Of a stretch of 64,000 nt of DNA, positions 14,058-51,322 are shown piece after piece; position 1 is the stretch's first letter; each line of letters opens with the position of its first letter. The position numbers and the translations under genes are program-made. Source of the stretch: Vermamoeba vermiformis (Eukaryota). Below the pieces are notes generated by a model that worked only from the letters and a program-made list of their open reading frames with translations, made no database searches and was not told where the DNA came from. The DNA lies in contig JBEWZL010000011.1 in NCBI GenBank assembly GCA_045837725.1, positions 186,001 through 250,000 of the forward strand, written 5' to 3'.

Positions 14058-17000
14058 TCACTTGTTGCTTGCAATATTATCGCCGGAGAGAGTCTGTTTT
14101 AATTCTTTCTTGATAGGCGCGAGAGGGGAGGAAGGATTATCGCGGTTTGCTAAATACAAACGTTTTAACGCATTGAATATAATCATACCGTATTTAGGTG
14201 TCTTCCATTCTGGCTCTACGTATGGCTCTGTTTGATCTGTCGTACTGACAGTCGGATTCGCAGCGATATTAGATTGATTATTATTATTATCACTAACGTT
14301 AGTATTGTTATTATTTGTATTATCATTAAAATCGTCTACTATTTCAGTGTCATCAACGGGTGTTTTGTCTTCAATTTGCTTCGTGTTAAATGACGCTTTT
14401 GTATAATCAAAATTGTCGTTTTTATGAACGGAAATAAATTCGGTAGGTGGTGTAACTGACGTGCATAATTTCAAACGATCAACGTTAATATAATGGTCGA
14501 GAATTTCTCCGTCTGGATTTGCAATTACGTATGTGAGCGGAGATCTTCGCGCGACAACGGTATAAGGACCTGACCAGGGTAAAGAGAATTTAGGAATTTG
14601 ACCTGGCACGCTTCGCGGCAGCCAATAAAACCAAACACGGTCGCCAATTTTAAATTGTGAGTCGCGACGATATTCATTATAATATTCTTTCATTCTATTT
14701 TGAGTCGCAACGATATTTTCGGTAATATATTTACGAGCAATATCTCTACCTTTAATAATTTCATCTAACACTTCATTATTGTTTAAATTTTCGTTTAAAT
14801 CTGGTGCGTCAGGAAAAATTCGGTCTATAATTTGATCAGAGTCATACCCGTATAAAGCAAAGAAAGGACTATAACCAATAGTTGGATGTTTTGCTTTGCG
14901 GTACGCGTTTTGAACGTATTTTAAATAAATATCCCACTCGCCTTGATTATCGTGGACGTATACTGATAAAAGCGTCGCGAGCGTATGATTAAATCTTTCA
15001 ACAAGTCCGTCTGTTTGTGGGTGATAAGTTGTTGTAAATGACGGTTTTGTTTTAAAATATTGTAAGATCTCTTCGCGAAATTTGTTTCTAAAACTCGATC
15101 CGCGATCCGAAAGAACTCTAAGCGGTGGATTATGCTCAATAACAACGTAATCTATATACGCTTTAGCTACTGATTTCGCACTAATGTCCTTTAACGGGAC
15201 ACAAATTGGAAATCGCGTTAAATAATCGCAAAATACGATAATATATCTATAACCACGTTTAGTTAACGGCAACGGACCAAGAATATCCATGCCGATCAAT
15301 TCCCACGGTTTTGAGACCTTAATTGGTTTTAAATAACCCGCTTTATAAACGCGAGGAGTCTTTCGTGCAATGCATTTAACACACGAGCGTTTAAATTTCT
15401 CTGGAATAGCGAGACATAATTTCGCGTGTGAAGGATTATGATCTTGATATTTTAATTTATATAATAGTCCGTTTTGCATATATAGATCCGAGCATTTACG
15501 TAAAAATTCAATCCCCGATCTGTGTGGTACGCAATCGCGTTCAAAGTAATCTATATATAATTTTAATTTAGGATCGTTTAATTGTTCTTGTCTGAATTTA
15601 TCCGGATTCGACGCAAAATTAAATTCGAGAGTAGATTCGATTGTCATCGAATTAATTGTGAAATTTGGAAGTCTAGATAGAGAATCTGCATTACCGTTTT
15701 TACGACCAGGTTTAGCACGAACTGTGAAGTTGTAATCCGCGAGAGCCATTTTCCAACGAGCAACCTTGCCGTTCATCGCTCTGAATGAGTCCATAAATTC
15801 GAGAGATTTATGATCTGTCTCTATTATAAAAGGTTGACCGTATAAATAAGATCTAAAATGTTTTATAGCTTCGACAGCTGCGAGGCATTCCCGTTCAGTC
15901 GCCGACGATTTAGCTTCACTATCCGTTAATTTGCGCGACCAATACGCAACAGGGTGGTCTTTGCCTTTCTCATCACATTGTGAGAGTACGGCACCGATTC
16001 CAAAAGCGGATGCGTCGACTTGAAGAATAAACGGTTTGTTAAAATCAGGATAATGCATAATTGGTTGACTTATTAAGCACGTTTTTAATCTATTGAATGC
16101 TGCAGAGCATTCTGTAGTCCATTCGAAAGTATTATTTTTCTTTAATAAATCCGTTAATGGGCGAGCTTTCTGCGCGAAATTACGAACGAATCTACGATAA
16201 TAATTACAAATACCCAAAAATGAGCGCACTTGAGTGACACTTTCTTTAATGCGGTCTTCATGCCAACTCGAAATTGCTCTAATTTTATCCGGGTCTGGTT
16301 TAATTCCTTTTTCGCTAATAATATGCCCGAGATAATTTGTTTCATAATAAGCGAATCTACATTTTGACGGTTTAACTTTTAGATTTGATCCACGGAGGCG
16401 ATCGAATACTTCGCGTAATCTACTCATGTGCTCGTCGAAAGTGCGCGAGAAAACTAATATATCATCTATGTAGACAAGACACGTTTTCCAATTTAATCCT
16501 GCTAGTGTCACGTTCATTAATCTTTGAAAAGTAGCAGGTGCGTTAGTCAAACCAAATGGCATGACGTTAAATTCGTATAAACCCGAATGTGTTGTAAAAG
16601 CAGTCTTTTCTTTGTCTTCTTCGCGAATTGGAATTTGATAATATCCAGAAATTAGATCTAACGTTGTAAAATATTTCATGTGCGACAAATGATTCAACGC
16701 GTCATCGATCCTCGGAAGAGGATATACATCCTTCTTTGTTACAGCATTTAATTTACGATAGTCAATGCAAAAACGTTTTGTTCCGTCTTTCTTTTTCACT
16801 AATAAGACAGGCGACGACCACGGAGAACTAGATGGTCGTATTTGTTGATTGTCTAACATGCGTTGGACAAATTCATCTATTTCTTTACGCTCTGACGGCG
16901 ATAATTTAGAGAATGGTCTAGACCTAACAGGGCCGTCTGTAACTTGAATTTCGTGTTTTACTTTATCCGTTGTAGTTTTTAATTCAGACGAGAATACGTC

Positions 17001-18010
17001 TTCGAATTCTTTAATGAATTCTTTTAGTGCCTCGATTTCGTTGCGACTTAATTTCGGATTAATTTGAGGGGACTGTGACGCAGGAAGGGAGACACGATCC
17101 TGTTGATGTACTTTTTCCATCGCGAGGATAACCTTAGTCCTTTCCGCATTCCCACGGAACATTGGATTCGAGAGACTTTGCGATGTTACGGGAGGGGTAT
17201 TAGCGGACGCATCATCATCTGAATCCGTTGTTCTAGTCCTATTCGTTCTATTCTCTGCCGAATTGTCGTCTAGAATAATTTCAAAACCATATTGATCTAG
17301 ACATACACTAAAGTTTCGCGTGGCTCGCGCTACTAGACTACTGTGCAAAACTAAAGTGTTTCGGTTCTCAGAGTTAGTCACGAACACATCGACAGTGTTG
17401 TTCGGACGTACAACCCCCATCTGTCTTCCAACAACTGCGCGATGCCGAGAATCAGACATCTCGATCAACAAATTGTCACCTACTTTCAAGTTGTTCTCCT
17501 TACTAAATTTACATCGAATAATAATTCCTGAGTGACTTGGCACTTTAATCGTACTACATGAATAGAGCGCAATTTCAAATTCTTTATCATTACTACAATC
17601 AATCATATTAATCTCGTTTGCTGTCCACGCAACTTTGTTCGCAATCATTAACTCAGCTTTAGCGGTAGTGAGCGTGTCCATTCCAAGTAATAAATCGAAT
17701 CTGAAATTCTCGATATATAATGCTGTAACAGGGATCGATACGTCATTGATCTCAATATTAAATTGTGCGTATTTGTTCGCATATATAATCTCAGAGTTTG
17801 CAACTCGTAATGTATATTGTCTCGTGTTGTATAATATGATATTGGGATACTTATTAATGAAATTGTTATTGATAACAGAGACTGATGCTCCAGTATCAAT
17901 TAATGCTTGAATATTAGTGTTATATAATTTGACCGTTACGAAAGGTAATTTCGTGGACTGAATTAAATTAACGAGCAGCTCAGAGTCCACGTCTAACTGC
18001 TCTGATTGCC
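14058..18010 (-). CDS. pol: Pol polyprotein (aspartic protease, RT, RNase H, integrase)
   Basis: LIDTGAS; RFCIDYRKLN; YIDD; QVDAS; integrase MDILG, SDRG, LVERFN; GPY module. Frame is open back to the slippery site. Confidence 0.95.
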
Positions 18011-18017
18011 ATTTCCC
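17952..18017 (-). promoter_or_regulatory. -1 programmed ribosomal frameshift signal (slippery heptamer + H-type pseudoknot)
   Basis: G GGA AAT at 18017-18011, 8-nt spacer, stem GAGCAG/CTGCTC, loop CGTGGAC complementary to downstream GTCCACG; pol is in the -1 frame. Confidence 0.85.
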
Positions 18018-19216
18018 TGCCTCTTTCCATTGTTGTTTTGTTGTTGATTTGGGTTACCGGTAAAGTTCGGCATCATGTTATTATTATACGTTTGGTTTGG
18101 ATTGCCGTTAAAGTTAGGATTCATGTTTGGTAACGCGTAAAATGGTTGAAACGGAAGGGCTTGAGGAAGTACGAAAGGGAGGTATTGATTTTGATTTTGA
18201 GGCATTTGTTGTTGTTGATTATTGTTATTGTTATATCGACGACGATTGAAAGAACCTCGTTGGTTACCACGGTTATCATTGTATTGTTGTGAATAATTTG
18301 GTTTCCCACGTTGAGGAAACGGTCTACCTCGGTTGGGGTTACCTCGAAAATTTGGCTTACCACGAGTAGAAATGAAATTTACGTCATCAATTGGATTGTT
18401 ATTATTTTGAGTAGTCTCGGTATCATTTACCTGAGTTACAGCATTCACAGTTCCAGTCGCGTTCGTTTTCGCAGCTTTCGGTTTGATGATAATACTCCAT
18501 GGCAAGTTGACCATTGCGCTTGAGAGTCGCGAGTAATCTGTCATCATCGAGACCATGTTCGTACGTACGTGCGTGCTCACGTGTTCTGGGAGGGCATCAA
18601 GCAAATACTTGATCTTGTCGGGATCTGACGATGGGTACGATGCAAAATGAGAGTTGAAGCGAGTGTAGAACTGATTAAAAGTCTCTTTTTCAGGGTCCCA
18701 TCTCTCGTTCGATATTTCGCTTTGCTTGACCATGTTGCTTTCAGGAGCGATGTAGTTTGTCGCAAGCCATTTAGCAGCTGATACCATGTCTTGTTTGAAC
18801 TCTTGTGATGCTCCATTCCATGCTTTCAAAGGGCCACCAGCCAATTTACGACCAAATATGAGCAACTGTTCCTTCGCTGATAACTTGTGAAATTGGACAA
18901 GGCTGTAGAACGATTCCAACCATGTGGTGCTATCCTTTTGTTTAACCATATCGAACGGTTTGCAATTGGTGTCTGCGATAGCGTCCTTCAATCGACGATT
19001 GCCAGCCAATTTATCGTTGAGCGTTTTGACTTCGGTTTTAAGTTGGTTGTTTTCGCTTTGGATGCGAGTAATATCGTTTCTTAATTGAGCATTTTCTTGA
19101 CGTACCAATTGGTGTAAATTATACAAGTCCATGTATTGTTTTCGATAATCTTCCAGATTTGATGCAGATGCGGGAGTACTTTCGCTGGCAATATCAATTT
19201 CTTCGTCTTCAGATAT
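17993..19216 (-). CDS. gag: Gag (N-terminus lost at the DNA-transposon junction)
   Basis: Coiled coil, retrotransposon capsid-like core (WLESF...LAGGPLKAW...ETFNQFYTRF), N/Q/R-rich tail ending QGNGNQSS*. Confidence 0.85.
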   Translation of the reverse strand: MSEDEEIDIASESTPASASNLEDYRKQYMDLYNLHQLVRQENAQLRNDITRIQSENNQLKTEVKTLNDKLAGNRRLKDAIADTNCKPFDMVKQKDSTTWLESFYSLVQFHKLSAKEQLLIFGRKLAGGPLKAWNGASQEFKQDMVSAAKWLATNYIAPESNMVKQSEISNERWDPEKETFNQFYTRFNSHFASYPSSDPDKIKYLLDALPEHVSTHVRTNMVSMMTDYSRLSSAMVNLPWSIIIKPKAAKTNATGTVNAVTQVNDTETTQNNNNPIDDVNFISTRGKPNFRGNPNRGRPFPQRGKPNYSQQYNDNRGNQRGSFNRRRYNNNNNQQQQMPQNQNQYLPFVLPQALPFQPFYALPNMNPNFNGNPNQTYNNNMMPNFTGNPNQQQNNNGKRQGNGNQSS

Positions 19217-19240
19217 GGCAAGGTCCGCGAGTCTCAGTCC
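19217..19240 (+). repeat. Left TIR
   Basis: GGCAAGGTCCGCGAGTCTCAGTCC preceded by ATAT (19213-19216). Confidence 0.9.
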
Positions 19241-19313
19241 AAATGATCGGAGAAATTGCATTTGGCAAATTGAATTTTTCATACCGTTTATTATAATTTG
19301 TAGTATGACATAA

Positions 19314-21368
19314 TTAAATATTTTGTTCTTCAAACTCTTCTACCAAATCATCACATTGCAAGTCTGATTCGGGAATCCACGAGTTAAATGAGTTGTCGTA
19401 ACCAGCCCATTTTACTTCGTACTGAACTTGGTTCTTAACTTTTCGTTTGCCAACAATGCATTCCACTTCAAATTCTTCACCTTCAGATCTTTCATCTTCG
19501 GTGGGAGCACTTGTTCCTTTTGGATGGTTGACTCCCACCACAGTTGTATGTCTTTCAATCCATTCTCCAACAGTATTCTGATTTGTGCACTTGTCAAATT
19601 GAAACTTTAAGCAGTGAGTACAGACGCAAGGCCATCTACGCATGTAAAGCTTGTTTGGTTGTCTTGAAAACACAAAGTCATAGCATGATTTAATGCCAGA
19701 AACAGTTGAAACATCTTCTTCAGTATCATTGTATTGAATATTTAGGACAGTTGAAGAACCTCCTTCAATTGTTGACCAATAAGCTGCTAAATCTTCTGGG
19801 GTGTCAATAAATCCATCTTCTTTCAGAACATGAATACGGGCTTTCTTTTTCAACAGTGCACCACGTCCATCACACTCTCCTTTTCCATGGTAAGCAGGGT
19901 CGATAATCCAGCGTAAATGAAGACCAAGAGTTGAGAAAACCTTGGTTCCCCAGTGCATTGAGCGACGATTCTTGAAGTGTTGCATTCCTCCATCAGTTAG
20001 TAGAATGCAGTGGCAAACATCATTGCCTAAATCTAACAGTGGAAGAAGTGCAGTAAATGCCTTTTGGAATACCACAGATGTGTGGTATAGGTAAGGTGAA
20101 ACAAACGCGTGGTACTTTTTGATGATGTCTGGCTGTTCTCTGGTACTTAATGCACTGTGGTACCAAATGGTTGCAATCAGGACAGTAGTTTGTCGCCTTC
20201 CATAAAATGCATTGCCAACTTCAATTGAACTAATGTGAGAGTAGTTCATTAGAAAGTCCCAGCGCATCATGACTGTATCCATTGGAAGCTGTGCTTTCAA
20301 TGTTTTGATTGTTGACTTCTGCCATTCAACATGAAGCTTGTGGTCTTTTGCTTTGGAGGTAGCCTCTTTGTAGCCCTGAAGGAATTGTTGCCTTGTACTG
20401 TTGTGCGAAACATGTACCATCTGATTGGGTGCATACTTGTCTCGATCATTAAGAAGTGCTTTTGAAGGAATAGGAACTATCCAGTTCTCAGCAGCTTGAG
20501 ATTGAAATTCAACTGGACAGTCATCAACAGAACAGGTGCAATCAGGTGTGCAGTCAGCACCATGATTACAAGCAGAACAGTAGAGACACAGGCACTGACA
20601 TCTATCATGCCACTGACGTCGTTTCTGCTGGAGCATCTTTGTCCAATGATGAGCAGAGGAGCAGGTTGGGCACAAACCAGAGTAGTAACGTTGCAAGTAA
20701 ACACACTTTGGAACTAAGGAGTAAAAGGTAGAACAGCCAACTCCATTTGGGCAATCAGTCTATTGACAATGTTAGTAAAAGTAGAAAATGGACGCGCGGC
20801 GCGTTGACGGAATGGGTACCTTGTACTGCTGAAAAAGTTCACCAATTGAGGAGTCACGATAATGCATAACTTGGAAGCCCCAAGAACCATTTGCTTCACG
20901 TTGGCGAACAACATTGGATGAATTGGCAGAGGCACGGCAGTGATCCAAAATCCAGTTTGTAACAAGAGAGGGTTCGACTGGGAGCCTGCTAGCTTTGTAT
21001 TGGGTCTTTGTAACAAACTTGTTGTGTTTGCCGGTTAATAAACTGTCACGAAGCTTTTCACGGGCATCCAATAGAGCTCTGGTAATGCTGCGTGTTGAAA
21101 TGCCAAGAACTTCTGCCTGAGCTTTGTCTGTTTCGTCTGACAACATGGTGCCCAAACTGCCACGAAAGAAGCCAGAAACTCGTTCTGATTTGGCGGCAAC
21201 GCGAAGAGCTTGTGAGTAATTGGAAAGCAAATTATGCTTTGTCGAAGAGCAACTGAGGACGTGCAAATGTGGTGCAATTCGTTGGTGCTTGAATACTTGA
21301 AGGAGCTCTGGTTCAATGCGCTCTGGCGGAATTTGAGAGAAAGTAGCAAGGAGTAGGTGTTGGTACAT
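19314..21368 (-). CDS. Sola2-like DDD transposase with Cys-rich region and C-terminal chromodomain
   Basis: Exons 21368-20820 and 20759-19314 (60-bp intron with TACTAAC); motifs WDFLMNY, LTDGGMQHFKN, YHGKGECDGRG; chromodomain EFEVECIVGKR...YEVKWAGYDNSFNSWIPESDL. An additional 5' exon is possible. Confidence 0.82.
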
Positions 21369-23670
21369 CTGTGTTATTGTTCGTGAAGGAGTACTTGAAA
21401 TAAATTAGTAAAGGGAGAGTGAACGCGCCGCGCGTTCATAGTTTTTATTAATTTTATTATGAAAAAAAAAATAAAAAGCAGTTGTTCTTTCATTATTTTC
21501 AATTTTTCAAACAGTGCACCACAAATGAAAAAATCTACTCCTACACCAGAGTCGAGCAAGGCTTTGCTCGATAAATGGCTCACAAACGAAGGCAATCCTA
21601 CTTCAGTCCCGTTGGCTCAAATGACTGTGCGAGGTAAAGAAAAATATTAATTTTAAAAATCACAAACGCGCTGCGCTTTCACGCCAAAGAGCTGATTATT
21701 ATTCACAAGTGTTGTAGTATTTTTAAGCAATATTGTTACCTTTTTTTGAACGCGCAGCGCGTCGATAAAAAATGCATAATTTTTGGACGCGCGGCGCGTT
21801 CATTGTTGTTCTCACTGCTCTAATAATTTTCAATAGGAACATACCGCACTGTTACTGAAGAAGGAAAAGCCACGATTAAGAACAACATTATTGCGCAAGG
21901 AGCTGGCGACTTCATGAATGGTTTAAATCGTACGGAGCCATTTCTTGTTCAACTGCTGCCGCCCGACGAAAAAACGAAGAAGAAAAGCAAGCAACCCGAG
22001 TACCGAATTCTTGGCGGCAACCATCGATACGAGATATTCAAGGAAATGTAAGTTAATAATGGTGTTGGTTTTTCACACAATACTAAAACAGCAATAGGGG
22101 TGTTACGGAATGGCCTTGCTACATTCTTGCTGCTACGGTTGACGATGTAAAAATGACAGAGTCGGAGACTGAGCAATTGGCTGGCATGGACAACGGCAAA
22201 TCCCAGTACGGAATCGCAAAGGCTGGCTGGTTTGAATAGTTCGAGAAGCTAAACCGCTATCTGCAATTTCCCGGCATCGTCGTCACTAAGGGAAAACGGA
22301 CAACTACGAACTGGGAGGCAATCTATGCGCTGTCTGGTAATCACGAAGGGCTATCCGTCAACACCGCGAAAAAGCTAGCAACTGCACGCACAAACACGGT
22401 GCAGGCAACTCAGGAGAAGAAGTTCGAAAAAAACCCTTTGTTCATTCGCATGCAAGCCCTACACGCCAAGTACGGGTACAATCTGCCAATCAAAATGAAG
22501 ATGTTCACCGAAGAGAAGAGGTTTTGGCAAATGGACACGTTTCAACAGGTGGAGGCAGTAAATCTGTTCATTGAATGCATCGAACAGAACAAGTGCAAAG
22601 GAACTGGAACTGGTAAGTCATTCAAAAATGTCTTTCTTTATGAACGCGCCGCGCGTCAACAAAAACTTTCTTTGTTTGAACAAAAAATTGTACTTTTTTC
22701 TGAACGCGCGGCGCGTTGACAACACTACATTGTTTATGAACGCGCGGCGCGTCGATAAAACTTAGCTTTTTATGAATAAAAAATTGGGAATTTTTCTGAA
22801 CGCGCGGCGCGTCGACAAATATTTGAATTTTTTGTACGAAAATTGCCTATCTTTATGAACGCGCCGCGCGTTGACAAAAACACTTTGTTTTTTTATAACA
22901 ATTCTCATTCACTTGTAGATTGGAGTTCAATGATTGACAGTGTTCTCCGACGTGCTAAAATCGTCGATTATATTGGCAAAGCACAACCTCAGGCTGATTT
23001 GCTTGAGGAGTATACTGAAGCTGTTGGTCGTGGCGAGTTTCCTTGGTTGGAAGAAGCGTGCACGGATGCACTAGATAACGCAGCAATGCAGCACCTTTTG
23101 AAATGCCTTGAGAAGGGCACCGCTGCTAAATCTGTAAAAGCACCTGTTCCTGTGTTAGATGGGCCGGTACGAATACGTTCACTCATACAACTTTACATTC
23201 TAACTTTTTTCACAGAAATCACCCTCTGCCAAGAAACCGCAGTCTTCCAAGAAGGACGAGCTTCTCAAGGAGAGAATCGATGCACATATCGATTCAGAAA
23301 ATGTTGAAGCCAGACCACCAGAAGAAGTTGATGCAAGCCAAAGTGAAGCTGAACCTGACGATCTTGCTGATAAGAGACCTTCGCGGCAAAAACATACAAC
23401 TAAGGCTGCTGACGAAAACACGGAGGCCGCAGAAGCCACTGTGGACAAGCCTGTTAAGGAGAAGAATTCTGCGGAGGCAGCTGGTGACAAGCCTGCTAAA
23501 GGCAAAGATGCAGCACAGGCTACTGGTGACAAATCTGCTGCTAATAAGCCTGCTAAAGGCAAGAATGCACAGGCAGCTGTCACTGATCAAGAACCAAGCG
23601 AAAAAGGATCTCCCAAGAATACACCTAAGAAAGGTGATTCCCCTCCTGTAAGCGTGAACGCGCCGCGCGT
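20792..23670. repeat. Dispersed palindrome ACGCGC-N-GCGCGT, 11 copies
   Basis: Cores start at 20792, 21423, 21666 (degenerate), 21750, 21787, 22644, 22704, 22740, 22800, 22859, 23658; all intronic or intergenic. Confidence 0.92.
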
Positions 23671-24729
23671 TTTGCCCTACGTATCTAATTTAATGTTTTA
23701 GGATGCCACACTGTGGAAAGTTTCTGCCACAGAGCAACTTACCACTCATTTCAATGCTCATTACAATGTTGTTCCTGAATTTGGCTTGCAGCTTCCAATT
23801 GTGACGAAGGCTGACTTGGTCTTTTATAACTGCACTGGAAGAATTTCTAACGCACATTGGAATGCAATGATGAAGTCCGTCCTCGAAAATGGCAGGGTTG
23901 TGATTATTGCTGAGCCAGCAGACTCCCCAACTATTTTCACTGGTCTTTCCGCCAAGGAAAATACTTTGGAGTTCGACTTCAAGTACACTGGCGTGATGTC
24001 ATATCCTCCTTCGCGGGTCCTTCAAAAAGACCGCCCTGCAGCAACTTGCTGGGACTTCTACTTTCTCAAGGTGAAAGGTGGCCAGCCACACTTTAATGAT
24101 GAAGATTTGGATGGGGCACGCCACAGAAGTCAATACTGGTCTCATGGTACCTTCAAAGCACCAACACAGGAAGAGCACTTGCACGCAAGAGCTTCCACTG
24201 CTGCACCTCCTATGTATCCAAGGCAGCCTCCAATTGAAATGTTTGAGTTTGTTATTCGGGTAAGTTTCTTTTTTTCACCACCTTTCCTTTGCTGACTAAT
24301 TGATAGGCCTTTGCTCCGCCTGCCCCTTTTGTCATTGTTTTCAACGAGTGCTCGGCAGCATCTTACATTGCCTGCGTCAATATGACAGCCACCTACCTTG
24401 GTTTCATGCTTACTGACAACAAGGAGGTTGCATGCCAACATGTTTCAAGGTTCATTTCCTCACGCTTGTCCAGCCAAGAAGATGCCACAGCCCTTCAAAA
24501 CACTTTGTTTGAGATTGTTACAAACAAAGTGCAAGAAGGTGATGAAGATGATGAGCCACTGGGACTGCCTGACACTCCTGCTAAGATGGCTGTGGATGAG
24601 GATTTGCCTGAGACCCCTTATGTGCCTGGCATCATGGATGAAACCCCAGCAGCTTCAAAGAAGCGCAAACGTGATGAACCTTCGTCACCTACAAACTTCA
24701 CCAAGAAGTCCAAATCTAATGCCAAGTAG
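21525..24729 (+). pseudogene. ParB/Srx-like N-terminal domain + low-complexity linker + degenerate DNA methyltransferase-like domain; one premature TAG
   Basis: Six exons; YRILGGNHRYEIF, EWPCYIL, EQLAGMDN; C-terminal ADLVFYN...VLENGRVVII...YPRQPPIEMFEFVIRAFAPPAPFVIVF...YLGF; TAG at 22237-22239 with the frame open on both sides. Confidence 0.65.
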
Positions 24730-25302: not shown

Positions 25303-28300
25303 AAGCAAGTTGTATAGTGCAGCATTGGTGAAACAACTGGGAACCTTGACATTTTGCAACATCCATTGGCAAACGGGCTGTCCAATTGACTTGGAAATCA
25401 CCTGTCCGCCGTTTAGTGCTGGTAGTGCCATAGCTGGAGTGTAGTAAGTCTAGCTAATATATTTTACAATGTAAAATTTTGCTTACCAGCCTTCAGCTTT
25501 AATTCACGCCCATACTCGCCAGAACACACTGCACAGCTGGTGTTATCAATGAAGACTAAGCTTGCCTCAAAGATTTGTCTTCATGCCACATTAGTGAAAG
25601 CTACAGATGGTTCCCTTCAGTTTGGAATAACCGAAGGTCAGCATCGCCTTTCCACTCTTGCAACTCTCTATGCTAGCCACCCCCAAATTGCCAATTCCAC
25701 CTTGATTCTGCTTCAAGTTTGTCGAACAAAAGAGGTATATACATATCAATAGCATCCTTCTTATCCACCTGTGTTTATTAATTCATCACAGGACATCTTA
25801 GAGCTAACAAGCCAGCAAGGTGAAGCAGACTCAAATGCTTTAAGGGTGACTTGGGTGGATTCAGTATTCAATATTTGTCGGTTATTGCAAACCAACCCCA
25901 ATACTCACAACTGGACAACTACAGACTTCAGAGTTGCATTGGGAGCACCTTTTGAGAAGCAACAGGCCTACTGTAAGTGAAATGCATTCGGTTCACCAAC
26001 TATTTACTAACTGGAACAGTTAAATACTTGAAGATTGCAAAAGGCCTTGGAGAAGAAGCTTTCAGATATATTTTTAATTGTGTTCGAAAGCGTGCAATAG
26101 CCGAAATGAAGGGGTTACCAACAGAAGAGCCTTCATTCTCGTATAGCAAGCTAGAAACCCTCATCAAGCATTCACATGACACTCAGCTTAAATTAGTGCT
26201 TCAGAGTGAGTAGAATTGCTAATTACTATAATTACAGCTCTGTGATAACTGGTGCACTATTCAATACTGACTCTGACAGGAAATAATTTTGAACAAATTG
26301 GCCTATGGGAGAAACACGTTGCTGAAACACTCAAATCTGCCAAACAACACGAAAAACATGTGACAGTGTTCAAACAAGAAGTTGAGAGCTTAATGAAGGA
26401 GACAGATATCCAAAAACAATTAATACTCGAAATGGGTCTGCAATGGCTGACTGGTCCCAGTTTTAGTTCAGCTGAGCTTGATGACAAAGATATAACACGC
26501 AGGTTAAGTGTCATCAAGCAGATTGGCCAAATATTGAAGTTCACCGAGCATTCTGACTTCAGTGCAACAGACTTTCTACTGATTGACATCTGCTCTGGAG
26601 CTATTGATGATGAGGACCTTAGTAAACACATGAACAGAGCTGCTAGACTCGGTTGCTGGGGACTTTGTAAGCAGTGATTATTTATAACGACATGGTGCTA
26701 ACAAATGCAATAGGGATGCAAACAAAGGGCTTTGAGTTACCTAAGCTGGATGGTCTTATTCTTGTTCCTTTGTGCATTCTAGAAAACACTTTGTTTTCAC
26801 TATTTGCACCTCCAACAATAACAACAAGCTGTATCTTGAGCGTATTTGCTGCCCTCATGTACAAAGTAAGCTAATTCTATCTGCAAATCATTCTAACTGT
26901 TGCTTAGTTGACAGCTTCTGAGAGTTCTTTCAAAACAGCTGATCATGAAAGATTTATATTTAATGCAGCATTGGCATCATATATTTACTTCACAAAGCAA
27001 GGTACAGGTTTCTTTTTTTGCAATCACTGACTAATCACCTGTTCAGAATCAATTTGCGTATGGGATCTGTTTCCGGTCTCTTACCCAAGCTTGACTCGCT
27101 TCCGAACTGCCTACCAGGCGAATATCCAGTATAATGCACTTTGGAAATCCTCTGAACTTCAAATTGCTTTTGCCGCAAGCATTCAGGATGGATTCTCAAC
27201 ATTAGGGCCTCCACCTAAACGGTCCTTAGAAGTGCTGACTGCTGATGAGGTTAACAGGCTGGTAACAACAGTGCCTGCAGAGTCTGCTTTGCCAGAATCA
27301 GTTACTTCAGGAATTCCTCTGCACTACACCCAACCAACGAAGATAAAGTTACAACTAAAGCACAAATATGCACTCATGAATATTGAACATCAACTGCTCC
27401 CATATTTGAAGGATTTCAGCAAAGCAGACGCCATCTTTTCAGGGTTGCTTGAAAAGAGAAGCTTTAAACATAGTGTAGATGCAAGCAGCACACACCTTTA
27501 TTTTTTACCATACATCACCCTTGGTATGAATAGAATAATTACATGCCACTGTTACTCACCGTACAATTAAGAGCGCCAAAATATTGAAAGGAAGCTGCAA
27601 CATCATCTCGAATTGGCCTCCAAGTCATTATTTGAATGCACTCCGGAGGATTTTAAACTTTCGAACTGTTTGCTTAGAAATTTTCAGCACTGCCACAAAT
27701 GGGACAACATGTATATTTATCATGAAACAGTCTTTGGATCTTTGGGCTTTCATTTCGACTCCTTGGTAAGTTAAGTAAGGTTATGGAGCTAAGTATTAAC
27801 AAATTTCAAGGGTACTCCTGCAGTAAATATCTTGTTAGGACCTCCAGGATCAATGAAAATCTGGTACTTCATTGATGCAACACCTGAGAACTTGACTCGC
27901 TTTAGAAAATGTAAGTAGTATTTATCTTCTACTCTTTTCTAATGTTGGTCTGCATTCAGTGTGCGTACGGTCTTCTTCAAAAATTCAGGACATATGGATT
28001 ACACCTGAAACCCTAACCAAGAACGGAGTGACATTTCGTGTAGTGCATCAACAATGTGGAGACATGCTGATTGTTCCACCACTGCAATGGCATTGTGCTG
28101 TCTCAGCCCCCAATATCCCGGTAATTGTATTCATTAAACAAAAAAAAATAACTTACCACAGCACTAGGTTTCTCCAATTACTACAGGCATTGCATATACA
28201 ATCCTCCCCCTTCCTTGCTTACAACAAGCCATTGAGTTATACTTCAATTACACTACAACTCCAATCCCTTTGGAAATCATTTTGGGAGAGATGATTAACA

Positions 28301-29768: not shown

Positions 29769-29921
29769 CATAGCATATACTTCTTAACAAGCTTTATTAT
29801 ATATAATAAATACTTTTAGCAAAAACAACATCTTTGTTTACCTTTTGATCTTTGCTAAAAATTTACCACATTTTTATCAAAGACAATTTGTCTAAGCATT
29901 GAGAAATCCTTGTGGCCCTAG

Positions 29922-30223
29922 CAGAGTTAATAAATCTTTCAAACTCCATTATAGGGCAATTCACGACAGATGGAGGGCCAATCAAACATTGTTCCAAAGC
30001 CCAACCAAACAATTAGTGGTAAATTGGATTGTTGTGGCATGGAATCGAGTCGAACAGAATATAGTTAAAAAGAGCTTTAAGGTCTGTGGTATATCAAACG
30101 ACCTCAACGGAAGCGAAGAAAGTGAAGTGGCTGTCAAATTTCATCGCATGTTGTCATAAATTGTACAATAAATCCAGATTTTTCCAAACTGTTTATTTTT
30201 CCGACTTATTCGGCAGTTTACAG
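29922..30223 (+). mobile_element. 3' remnant of a pogo/Tigger-type (DDE_1) transposon
   Basis: VNKSFK...VVNWIVVAWNRV..NIVKKSFKVCGISNDLNGSEE, then a TIR-like end CCGACTTATTCGGCAGTTTACAG followed by TA. Confidence 0.7.
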
Positions 30224-48334: not shown

Positions 48335-51322
48335 TTAATTGATCACTTTCTTAATGGTGCTAGTGATGTTGTTGTTGTAGGCTGCGGACAATTCATCCAA
48401 TTCGCCAGCTTCAGCCATACTTAAGTAACCTCCGATTTCCTTCTTGTCCTCTTTCTTGGCGAACAACGCTACGTGGACATGTTAGTCCGATATTAAGTGA
48501 AACAAAAGGAACATAGTTCGTGTGATCCGCAAAGTTACACGCTAAACAGATGTGTTGGCAAGCAATACTTACGATCGTATATTCTCGGAGATACCGGTGT
48601 ATTCAAGTGGTGTTGCTTCGAGAACACTTTAACGAACTTCTGCAAGTCGTACTTCTGGTTATCAGGGATACGATAGTGCAAGATCTTCTTTTTCTTGTCG
48701 ATAAAGGTGATCGAGTAACCGCCCTGTGAGCTAAATCGAATCAAGTAGGCGCCGCGCTTGCCAGAAACAATCTTGGCCTCGGCCTCTTTAGCATTCAATT
48801 CGCCGTGGAACCATTTTTCTTCAAGTAATGACTTGATCTGGTCCAAGATCTCAGGTCCTTGCACGGGTCCAAACCACTTCAAGAACTTCTCAAAAGCATC
48901 CAATGTAACCATTCGCTGCGGGTGCTATAATTGGGGGCGGTAAATTTAGACAAAAAAGTAGAAACAAATCAACGGCTCTCGTTCAATGAATTTACCTTGT
49001 CAACATCCAAGACAGCTGCAAGGCACTGTGCGCGAATATCGTCTGCGCTCACGTTTTTAGCCTTGATGAGCTTCAAGAAAGCTTGGAGGAATGTGTCCCA
49101 AGCAACTTCCTTCTTTTTCTGTGTTAAACGTGATCAGATTTTAGATCCAGATGACGAATCAAGAAACAAATCATGATTGCTTACGGGACCGAAGTTCTTC
49201 CACATTTGTTGGCAAGCCTCGTTGCCTTGAGTAACGGCTTCGAGAATAATGTCGTCGAAAACTTTTGATTCTAAGATCTCTTGGAAGCTCGGTCGTTGCT
49301 TGGGGTCCTTGTGCCAGCAACGCTCCATGAGCTGTCGGAGCTTCTTAGGGCAGCTCTCAGGAATCTCGGGTCGCTCGTTTCGGTTCGAAACTGCATCGAT
49401 CAATTGATGGATGCTGCCGTATTTGCCTTCGTACGGCCTCTTCTCAGTAAACAATTCCCAAAGAACTGAAGATATGATAGGTTAGCCTATGATATTTACG
49501 CAATATACGGTAGTAAGCGGTATGAAGCGGTATATCGAAAATTAACCGTCAGGAATTCCGCATCTTGTTTTGTGATCGATCACGAGATAGACTTACTGAT
49601 ACCAAAAGCGTAAACGTCGCACTTCTCGGTGGTTTCGGGCTTAAGTTGGAACATCTCAGGAGGCATGTACAAAGGAGTGCCACCAGTGTTCATCTTGTCT
49701 TTCTCGCTCATTTTGTCGTCTTTCAGTCGTGACAAACCAAAATCGGCAATTTTGACTTTGAAGTCGCTCGTCAGCTGTTAATATTGACACAGTTAGACGA
49801 GGGCACGCACAGTATATTAATAGAGTTGTGACGTACCAGTAAGTTAGCAGTTTTGAGATCCAGATGCAACAAAGGGCTGGGCTTCATGCAGTGCAGCCAG
49901 TTCATACCAGCAGCTGTCTCACGAGCGATCTTCATCTTGCGGTGGAAACTGACTTTGATTGATTTATCTTTCAACACATCTTCAACGCTACCATTGGCTG
50001 CAAGTTCGGTAACTGCGCACAAAGAAAACTCGTTAATACTCCATATGTTAATAATATCAACGCAATCGTAACGATCGTGCAGCAACCGCTGTAGTAATTC
50101 TTAAAATAGATTGACGGATCTCTATCTGTGTAGTCTTTTGACTCGTGCGCTGAGAAACGATGACTTACCAATCTTTAACTTTCCAGGCTGTGTGCAAGCA
50201 CCCATAAAGAGCAGCAAGTTAGGATGCTTAAGGGCGCTAGAATAGATTTGCGTTAGTGATCGGTTAGCGCGTGGATTGACTCCTGGATGATCATAGGTTC
50301 GAGCAACTAAATTTACCTCATAGTTTGACACTCGCGCTTGAATTCTTTGGCACTCGACTCGTCCAATGTAGTAGTGCGCAATACCTTCACGGCAACTTCT
50401 TTGCCACGGCACATGCCTCTGTACACGGTACCGAATGAACCTGATCCGAGCTTTGCTTTCTCGACTGGAACTGTATCGGTACCCACTAAAATTGCGTAAT
50501 TATTAGTACCGTAACTGATATAAATGGATAATTGTCGAAAGAGCTGGAATTTCCGAAATAATTAAAAATAAGATCCTATCGCGACAGGAAAAATTGAAAA
50601 TATGGAATTCTTACACTTGATTTCGCTGTCTTCAATTTCCCAACCACCGAATCCGGCTAAGTGAGCGGTATCATCTTCGTCGTCTTCCAAATCCAAAGAG
50701 GGATCGGTTGTTGTCTCTTGCAAGAGAGTGCTATGTGTAACTGAAACGTATTGAGAGGAAGCTGAAGGGTCTGATCCTGCTTTCTTTCCCTATATTGCAA
50801 ATTTATTAAAATAAGAGCAAGATATTGTGGGCCGCTATGATTTTCGCGACGGATTAACCAAAATATAATCAATTTTCTCAACAAGAATCTACTTGTGCAA
50901 AATAAAAAGCAGATTAAGAATAAATTTATAACAATGGAAGTCCGTTAATTGCAGGATTAATAACATCAAATAATTACAATAATGTAATAATTTTTTATGG
51001 GTCTTGATCTTCGTTACTTTAATTTGTATATTGTCCTTACCTTCGATTCTGCTTCTAAAATATTAGCGAGCGTAACTCTCCATTTATGTTTGGCTTGAAA
51101 TAAATTTTTTCTCAAATCTAAGTATTGAGATTCGAGCGCGTTCTCCTGCACCTCTAAATCATCAATTTCCTGTCTCTTTGATTTTTTGTACTCTGTTTGT
51201 AGACCAGCTAATATTTTGTTGATGCTAACGTTGATATTTTCAATCTGCTGAGACAAACTGCCCAGCATCTTGGTCGAAGCTGTAATCTCAGCTTCGAGAT
51301 CCTTCAACGCTTTGTCGGCCAT
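48335..51322 (-). CDS. TKL-family protein kinase with C-terminal SH2 domain (SHK-like) and N-terminal coiled coil
   Basis: LGSGSFGTVY, VAVK, HLDLKTANLL, DFGLS, GTPLYMPPE, DVYAFG; SH2 WFHGELNAKEAE...GAYLIRFSS. Confidence 0.9.

Follow-up and report, generated by a model that had tools for sequence, protein, structure and literature searches.

We found that a gene of the amoeba Vermamoeba vermiformis ends in a domain that, going by its sequence, is very probably derived from a DNA amino-methyltransferase and catalytically dead. The gene lies on the + strand of contig JBEWZL010000011.1 (assembly GCA_045837725.1), in the 64,000-nucleotide stretch from 186,001 to 250,000 that was analyzed here as a whole and that we call the window; all positions below count from the first letter of the window. 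The methylase-like domain is encoded by the last two of seven exons (exons 6 and 7), and the N-terminal part of the same gene resembles ParB. The reading that we favor, with moderate confidence, is that a dead methylase domain of phage or bacterial derivation is being reused, linked to a ParB-like part, in a eukaryotic nuclear gene.

Probable methylase ancestry of the exon 6-7 domain

The strongest signal of ancestry comes from comparing profiles of the gene's family with profiles of permuted beta-class methylases of the PF01555 type. The raw alignments gave an hhalign match of 51% (E 1.5e-4). A cleaned five-row family alignment matched 8 methylases, filtered to less than 60% identity from 127 full-domain sequences, at 82.9% (E 9.2e-6, score 45.0) and a second set of 13 methylases at 79.7% (E 1.5e-5). 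The score of 45.0 lies about 13 standard deviations above those of 60 column shuffles (13.1±2.4, with 19.3 as the highest); reversing the alignment gave 12.3.

Single sequences gave matches to the same class of enzyme. By BLASTP, the family member P0002 aligned with a Staphylococcus phage PF01555 methylase at 29% over 90 residues (pairwise E 5e-9), with YPRQPP on HPTQKP and NE(C/L)(S/T)(A/G)AS on the GSGTT loop (the family side of this alignment being LYPRQPPVKVFQFLIQAYAPSEAVVLAVNELTGASYIAC). The alignment with the Mod-like methylase of a Clostridium phage spanned 183 residues at 22% (pairwise E 4e-8) and was colinear from residue 66. A tblastn search of phages with P0002 returned 60 weak records (E 0.04-10), and the 15 listed comprised 12 methylases, 2 unannotated records and 1 hypothetical protein. 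The profile libraries returned phrog_18293, 'methyltransferase' (PHROGs, E 9.8e-5), MTase_II (PADLOC, E 0.0025) and PRK13699, a DNA methyltransferase (NCBIfam, E 0.12), the latter two each as the sole match in its library and all three at residues ~170-245. The methylases 9c3u and 8urk in the PDB matched P0002 at E 0.4-0.5, and language-model neighbors carrying PF01555 were found at 0.91 and 0.89.

An unguided MAFFT alignment of the 5 family rows with 30 methylases was colinear over the whole domain. Greedy hhalign extension and MAFFT placed KADLVF on the beta4 strand SVDMIL, which precedes DPPY, HWNAMMKSVLENGRVVII on LWEQYERVIKDNGAIVL, FDFKYT on FKHEWIW and WDFYFLKV on the HENILVF strand. These colinear alignments follow the permuted order of motifs IV-VIII, target recognition domain (TRD), motif X and motifs I-III; statistics support the motif X and motif I half only, and the N-terminal half of the domain was assigned as methylase-like by colinearity. 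The domain thus appears to descend from a permuted beta-class PF01555-type methylase; the C-terminal half supports this descent well, and the remainder is consistent with it.

With a 35-row alignment (A3), AlphaFold2 produced a model with a predicted local distance difference test (pLDDT) score of 72.7 and a predicted template modeling (pTM) score of 0.68, in the order beta4, alphaD, beta5, alphaE, beta6, beta7, a disordered segment at 136-168, helix X, beta1, alphaA and beta2. In Foldseek this model matched M.BceJIV, M1.HpyAVI, the rotifer N4CMT, CcrM, RsrI, PvuII and MboIIA, reaching E 7e-10 to M.BceJIV, and it had a VIA Z of 15.3 to M1.HpyAVI (root-mean-square deviation 3.9, 187 aligned). 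Since 30 of the 35 rows are themselves methylases, the A3 model and all matches made with it are circular, amounting to a homology model rather than an independent test of the fold.

That circularity is one of several results that weigh against a methylase ancestry. Given the family rows alone, AlphaFold2 failed (pLDDT 38.1); the secondary-structure string of that model (strand 41-45, helix 51-64, strand 67-71, helix 73-78) agrees with the later model and carries little weight at such a score. Pfam PF01555 matched neither exon 6, exon 7 nor any of P0001-P0004 even at E 10, with positive controls at 8.8e-31 (L001) and 2.2e-14 (L002). The family profile had 0 matches among PDB sequences, and the best single PDB sequence match of P0002, ranking above the methylases, was the unrelated ATPase YjoB (E 0.013, residues 48-95). 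Significance in hhalign is confined to about 55 columns, which run from the motif X helix through beta1 and helix A to beta2. Taken separately, the sequence that precedes YPRQPP scored 14.7 compared with 13.7±2.9 for shuffles (14.2 with the second methylase set), which is not significant; its best, likewise insignificant, hhalign match was to motif I and not to motif IV, and its 3 tblastn matches in phages included no methylase.

Taken at face value, these results would suggest that the domain is not methylase-derived at all and that the resemblance is either convergent or accidental, a short helix-strand-helix of a different alpha/beta protein happening to match. The small number of significant columns, the silence of Pfam, the insignificant N-terminal half and the failed family-only model all fit such an explanation, which we nevertheless consider very improbable: four independent libraries give methylases as their only match or only consistent family at residues ~170-245, the hhalign score stands far above its shuffles, the pairwise alignment is colinear over 183 residues, and MAFFT puts W54, NG64-65, P73, FK94-95, P113 and F120 on invariant methylase columns.

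Loss of catalytic and cofactor-binding motifs

Motifs I and IV have established roles in amino-methyltransferases, in the binding of S-adenosylmethionine (SAM) and in catalysis. We compared the family with the 30 methylases at columns where at least 80% of the latter agree. The D-L-P-Y-G-x-T columns, 80-100% conserved in the methylases, are gaps in every family row with coverage there, namely the window gene, P0002 and P0003, and the position of motif IV reads (L/V)F-Y-(N/T)-C-T-G in the family. Motif X has changed from HPTQKP to YPRQPP, keeping P, Q and P and losing H, T and K; P0004 has NTQQVP. The D that ends beta1 has become A or V (VLD to VLA or VIV), GSGTT has become LTGAS in P0002 and CSAAS in the window gene, and the acidic E of FIGIE after beta2 is M in both. 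Wherever a family member covers the two SAM-binding acidic residues, both are replaced, and the WIWEK and HE of methylases are replaced as well. The core positions kept are W54, N64, G65, P73, F94, K95, P113, F120, P156, Q177, P179, A210, C211, G220 and R236.

On the motif roles given above, the loss of both motif I and motif IV would exclude SAM binding and catalysis, and the domain almost certainly can neither bind SAM nor transfer methyl groups. Because it has no match to the PF01555 hidden Markov model and has neither motif IV nor motif I, we classify it as a methylase-derived pseudoenzyme domain. The first-pass annotation of this DNA, made from the letters alone, had read the region in the register of a beta-class N6A/N4C methylase that had lost both DPPY and FxGxG. 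The losses are borne out, as the corresponding columns are gapped or replaced across the covering family members; the register holds by hhalign and BLASTP for the motif X and motif I half, and the half containing ADLVFYN rests on colinearity and is insignificant when taken alone.

With catalysis apparently lost, what is left to the domain is probably just the binding of DNA or of partner proteins. Of the segments particular to the family, the most conserved is (F/Y/H)W(S/L)HG-x-F(K/R)-x-(P/T)T-x-(E/D)E, which occupies the TRD position of methylases; this favors nucleic-acid recognition. The dead domain and this segment together could form a DNA-recognition or partner-binding surface. A non-catalytic DNA-binding or scaffolding role in the nucleus, close to the DNA-binding or base-reading module that the first-pass annotation had proposed, is a credible idea that we put forward tentatively.

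Beta-class methylases work as dimers. A different role would be that of a non-catalytic partner subunit, conferring DNA or chromatin targeting on an active amino-methyltransferase encoded elsewhere, as modeled on the inactive partners of the MT-A70 enzymes. Keeping core positions while losing catalytic and cofactor positions is what such a subunit would show; METTL3-METTL14 and MTA1c chains are among the structure matches (Z ~11, with the circular model), and inactive partners of the METTL14 type are described in the main text of PMC4738411. Against this, a Pfam search of 42 open reading frame (ORF) pieces found no active methylase in the window, and we regard a partner subunit as distinctly unlikely.

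Gene model

Joining the seven exons (Table 1) gives a single 831-codon frame, at 21525-24729, with one internal stop and with TAG as its own terminator. The introns, of 203, 50, 306, 49, 54 and 47 nt, are all GT..AG, as read from the sequence and the ORF frames. Part of this structure is seen in contigs of run X6, which carry a different organism label, are 95-99% identical to the window, and can be called RNA only as a guess. These contigs omit 22048-22097 and 22612/13-22917/18, each with GT..AG ends, and so join exons 2, 3 and 4; a third contig stops at the exon 6 boundary, 24260. Three RNA runs under the label of the window's own species gave 0 reads here, which carries no weight either way. 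Exons 4, 5, 6 and 7 are joined by frame logic, and the splice between exons 6 and 7 is supported by P0002 (336 residues), in which the sequence is uninterrupted. Exon 6 closes with YPRQPPIEMFEFVIR at 24259 and exon 7 begins with AFAPPAPFVIVFNECSAASYIACVNMTATYLGF at 24307.

The stretch originally flagged starts at 23702, which is the start of exon 6, and ADLVFYN is encoded at about 23810-23830. The flagged 48-residue peptide is present on the + strand where it had been placed. It is, however, spliced across the 47-nt GT..AG intron at 24260-24306, and the first-pass annotation had missed both this and the eukaryotic, intron-bearing nature of the gene. A bacterial-style reading of the region was rejected because the region is spliced. 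As exon 5 contains no Met and the first Met of exon 6 lies past the motif IV position, the domain can be translated only within a longer spliced protein.

Exon 4 had no Pfam, PHROG, NCBIfam or PADLOC match under E 0.07, and exon 3, read through its stop with X, had no library match. The linker in exon 5 has a K+R content of 0.19, D+E of 0.20 and A of 0.17, and the DNA repeat family D6 is located there. In the tail, the motifs PETP(Y/F)VPG, KKRKRD and PSSPT are conserved.

Table 1. Exons of the gene and other features of the window
Feature	Position	Strand	Remarks
Exon 1	21525..21633	+	ATG at 21525; ends in phase 1; donor GTAAAG; read from sequence and ORF frames only
Exon 2	21837..22047	+	ParB/Srx-like core with EYRILGGNHRYEIFKEM; 22047>22098 is a GT..AG joint in an X6 contig
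Exon 3	22098..22612	+	End of ParB-like domain and region without family match; in-frame TAG 22237-22239; both flanking joints in X6 contigs
Exon 4	22919..23166	+	No family match; X6 joint 22611/12>22918/19 and open frame
Exon 5	23216..23647	+	Charged Ala-rich linker with KPAKGK-type repeats, no Met; junctions from frame and GT..AG only
Exon 6	23702..24259	+	Methylase-like beta4-beta7, short TRD-position segment, start of motif X helix (YPRQPP)
Exon 7	24307..24729	+	Degenerate motif I (VFNECSAAS), beta2, helices, acidic tail, KKRKR, stop TAG
Palindrome cores	20792..23670		3 in intron 1, 5 in intron 3, 1 in intron 5, 1 ~90 nt before the ATG, 1 at 20792
Ty3/gypsy polyprotein and preceding 446-residue coiled-coil ORF	14058-19333	-	Protease, reverse transcriptase, RNase H, integrase; 1310 residues open
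Chromodomain ORF, 460 residues	19317-20696	-	C-terminal chromodomain, Pfam 1.4e-14
JmjC-like exons and DDE_1 transposase fragment	27571-28294 and 29896-30156	+	One piece matches Pfam JmjC at 8e-4, with H-x-D and a downstream H by eye; DDE_1 at E 0.018

The ParB-like N-terminus

The N-terminal part of the gene carries a GGNHR motif. G-x-x-R, or (D/G)-G-x-H-R, followed by a helix and a strand, is what we take to be the phosphate-binding motif of the ParB/Srx fold. The segment ILGGNHRYEIFKEMGVTEWPCYIL aligns in register with VVSGHRRLQAAKEVKLKTVPAYIV of the ParB_N domain of P0222, over the GHRR helix and the following strand; P0222 contains a bona fide ParB_N (Pfam 2.5e-8) and is a concrete ParB-methylase fusion. 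The language-model neighbors of exon 2 were clusters of DUF6551 and of ParB_N (0.92), which share no more than 131-141 features with it, and its sole PHROG match was phrog_723, 'ParB-like partition protein' (E 0.26).

Other searches speak against a ParB identity. The Smith-Waterman score with the P0222 ParB_N was 38, compared with 27±4.6 for shuffles, of which 12 of 500 reached it, and exons 2 and 3 matched no Pfam, NCBIfam or PADLOC model for ParB; PDB sequences and tblastn of phages and plasmids gave no ParB match either. The main reason to take the weak ParB signals seriously is that the order of a ParB-like part followed by a methylase recurs here as in phage fusions. On balance, we think a ParB fold at the N-terminus somewhat probable from its sequence. 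The first-pass annotation had described the domain as fused to ParB and had pointed to such fusions in phages. The fusions are documented (main text of PMC12704722), with P0222 as an example, and the gene model does link the exons; the ParB identity draws on the GGNHR motif, the language-model neighbors and weak matches, and the in-frame TAG at 22237 intervenes between the two parts.

A ParB-like N-terminus combined with the methylase order of phage fusions suggests that a ParB-methylase gene was captured from a phage or a bacterial mobile element. Introns and the basic KKRKR stretch would have been gained after the capture. Basic stretches of the KKRKR type belong to the nuclear localization signal motif class; this one could act as such a signal, which would make the protein nuclear.

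We also looked for ParB-like proteins around viral methylases. A phmmer search with the P0222 ParB_N found none among 1940 ORFs from 80 viral methylase loci, and PF02195 was absent from 5 viral records. The only find of a motif scan in the same 1940 ORFs was a 402-residue ORF beside a PF01555 methylase (L074:654-1859). It carries ILDGNHRYDA, near the ILGGNHRYE of the window gene, belongs to no Pfam family, and may be an unrecognized ParB-like protein of a phage methylase locus. Separately, an exon-like ORF of the next gene in the window (25426-25752, + strand) encodes LQFGITEGQHRLSTLATLYA, which by eye is like a DGQHR/ParB-type motif; this ORF had no library match and no tblastn similarity to the ParB-like gene.

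In-frame TAG, selection and family distribution

The joined frame is interrupted by a TAG at 22237-22239 (codon 154 of 831), which in this copy separates the ParB-like part from the remainder and counts against the favored reading. The X6 contigs do not span this position. The TAG may be a pseudogene lesion, a polymorphism or an assembly error, and the window copy itself may be non-functional, a dead allele or copy. Inspection of the sequence showed no in-frame mini-intron, its length a multiple of three, that could remove the TAG. Translation of TAG as a sense codon is unsupported, as none of the 8 long ORFs checked has an internal TAG and the gene itself ends in one; 2 of these 8 ORFs terminate, as expected, in TAG or TGA-type stops.

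Over 874 coding nt, nine differences between the window and the X6 contigs were listed and classified; 14 letters differ in all, 5 of them unlisted. Of the nine, 7 are synonymous and 8 lie at third codon positions. This pattern argues for purifying selection on the family.

The family is small. We found 4 matches at E ≤0.001 among 1,835,955,588 representatives, and the search for longer proteins gave 1 relative among 311 candidates and no full-length relative. In metagenome contigs, 223 pattern matches (alignment A4) included 0 relatives, and the window contains no paralogue of the gene. Members are 57-69% and ~30% identical, and conserved blocks persist down to P0003 and P0004 at 30% identity.

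The TAG raises the possibility that the gene is a decaying relic, a horizontally acquired or transposon-borne ParB-methylase gene that is degenerating neutrally, in which case the motif losses would simply be decay. The rarity of relatives (4 among 1.84 billion representatives) and the transposon-rich setting, with a Ty3/gypsy pol, a chromodomain ORF and a DDE_1 fragment, would be in keeping with this. Neutral decay does not sit well with the same motif losses being common to members of such divergence, whose blocks are otherwise strongly conserved and whose frames stay open over 111-336 residues, nor with the excess of synonymous and third-position differences or an 831-codon frame that is intact except for a single TAG. 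The X6 contigs are also spliced, so that a close relative would be transcribed if X6 is RNA, which is a guess. We therefore consider a relic unlikely.

The significance of the gene depends on this point. If functional, the family would be a new one of chromatin- or DNA-binding proteins, of phage origin and very narrow distribution, and invisible to standard annotation, having no Pfam match; it would also be a natural test of the uses to which a methylase scaffold can be put without SAM. If this copy is merely a pseudogene in a transposon-rich region, it would be a modest footnote on horizontal transfer.

A palindrome array in and beside the gene

The gene region also contains an array of a palindrome with a 13-bp core, ACGCGCSGCGCGT, and a 19-bp full form, TGAACGCGCSGCGCGTTCA. 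There are 11 cores, of which 10 are exact and 1 has a single mismatch, compared with an expectation of 1.23±1.05; the sole other match in the 64 kb, at 48747, has two mismatches. Intron 3 consists essentially of five ~60-nt tandem units with one palindrome central in each, and the copy at 20792 lies in the 3' end of the divergent neighboring ORF.

The ligand to be expected for a palindrome is a dimeric DNA-binding protein. From their position, the palindromes may belong functionally to the gene, and the array, confined as it is to the gene, offers a concrete candidate ligand. That the gene's own product binds the palindrome is speculation and, in our judgment, improbable. We give similarly little credence to the fuller proposal that a phage ParB-methylase descendant has become a sequence-specific, NTP-gated DNA-binding protein whose dead methylase or ParB-like part recognizes TGAACGCGCSGCGCGTTCA. 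Were it true, the array would be a parS-like site cluster, an autoregulatory or silencing nucleation center inside a spliced nuclear gene.

Searching metagenomes for the paired-palindrome pattern gave 40 loci (GC content 0.54-0.75) in unrelated contexts, none of which encodes a relative, and the single palindrome had 4 isolated, uninformative matches in viral contigs. Among the 40 loci, 11 from one metagenome (L092, L098-L101, L103, L104, L106, L115, L121 and L123) contain another, longer palindrome, TGTCACGCGCSGCGCGTGACA, in pairs ~33 nt apart at a GC content of 0.58-0.67; it is a dispersed repeat from some other organism and unrelated to the array described here.

Neighboring genes

The window is eukaryotic in character, with short ORFs chained by GT..AG introns, and the neighbors include Ty3/gypsy polyprotein, MYND/TPR, G-alpha, Kelch, USP7-like and JmjC-like pieces. 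The stretch around the gene is rich in transposon remains. No long terminal repeat of at least 60 nt was found within 9-32 kb, and Rfam and tRNA scans of the window found nothing. Upstream of the chromodomain ORF, in the region 19317-21368, a 198-residue minus-strand ORF has a weak helix-turn-helix (HTH)-like match (DUF134, 0.0044). It is divergent to the ParB-like gene, and the 157-nt spacer between them holds one palindrome. Neither the chromodomain ORF nor this 198-residue ORF had a methylase match.

Comparison with known systems

Eukaryotes have repeatedly captured bacterial DNA methylases, and dead methylase domains have been reused as targeting or partner subunits in the MT-A70 and DNMT3 lineages. 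Full-text literature searches, and what was consulted in PMC4738411, PMC12704722 and PMC8885841, turned up no report of such a dead domain from the PF01555 lineage or of a ParB-linked one in a eukaryote; the supplements of these papers could list such architectures.

Inactive methylase partners or readers with disrupted motifs and a retained fold include the METTL14/Kar4 type and the second domain of the basal-fungal DpnA-like clade 4 (main text of PMC4738411). Those belong to MT-A70 or unpermuted DpnA lineages and stand beside or within an active enzyme, whereas the window gene has no known active partner. The same main text describes 'Dam' methylases of chlorophytes and chytrids that have a ParB-type HTH at the N-terminus and phage ParB-Tls ancestry (PMC4738411). 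These are group-2 (Dam/DpnM-like) enzymes with a ParB HTH, and a loss of activity is undescribed for them in that text; the window gene has a dead domain of the PF01555 type and an N-terminus like the NTP-binding-type domain of ParB.

The rotifer N4CMT is closer in methylase class, being a permuted beta-type N6_N4 methylase of bacterial or phage origin that has introns in its eukaryotic host, is fused to a chromodomain and is active (main text of PMC8885841). Its structures 8s9n and 8s9o match the circular A3 model at a Foldseek E of 3e-8 and a VIA Z of 13.2-13.4. It differs in that it is recognized by Pfam and has its chromodomain at the C-terminus, whereas the domain described here is unrecognized, is without the catalytic loop and follows a ParB-like N-terminus.

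The nearest parallel in architecture is the ParB_N-N6_N4_Mtase fusion of phages (PF02195 and PF01555), which is enriched in prophages (main text of PMC12704722). Phage and plasmid fusions have the same order, a ParB-like N-terminus and a permuted methylase at the C-terminus, and the C-terminal half of our domain aligns with phage PF01555 enzymes. The phage fusions are active, in contrast to the window gene, which has lost DPPY, the glycine loop and the acidic SAM ligands and matches neither Pfam model; it is eukaryotic, with seven exons, a long charged linker and KKRKR.

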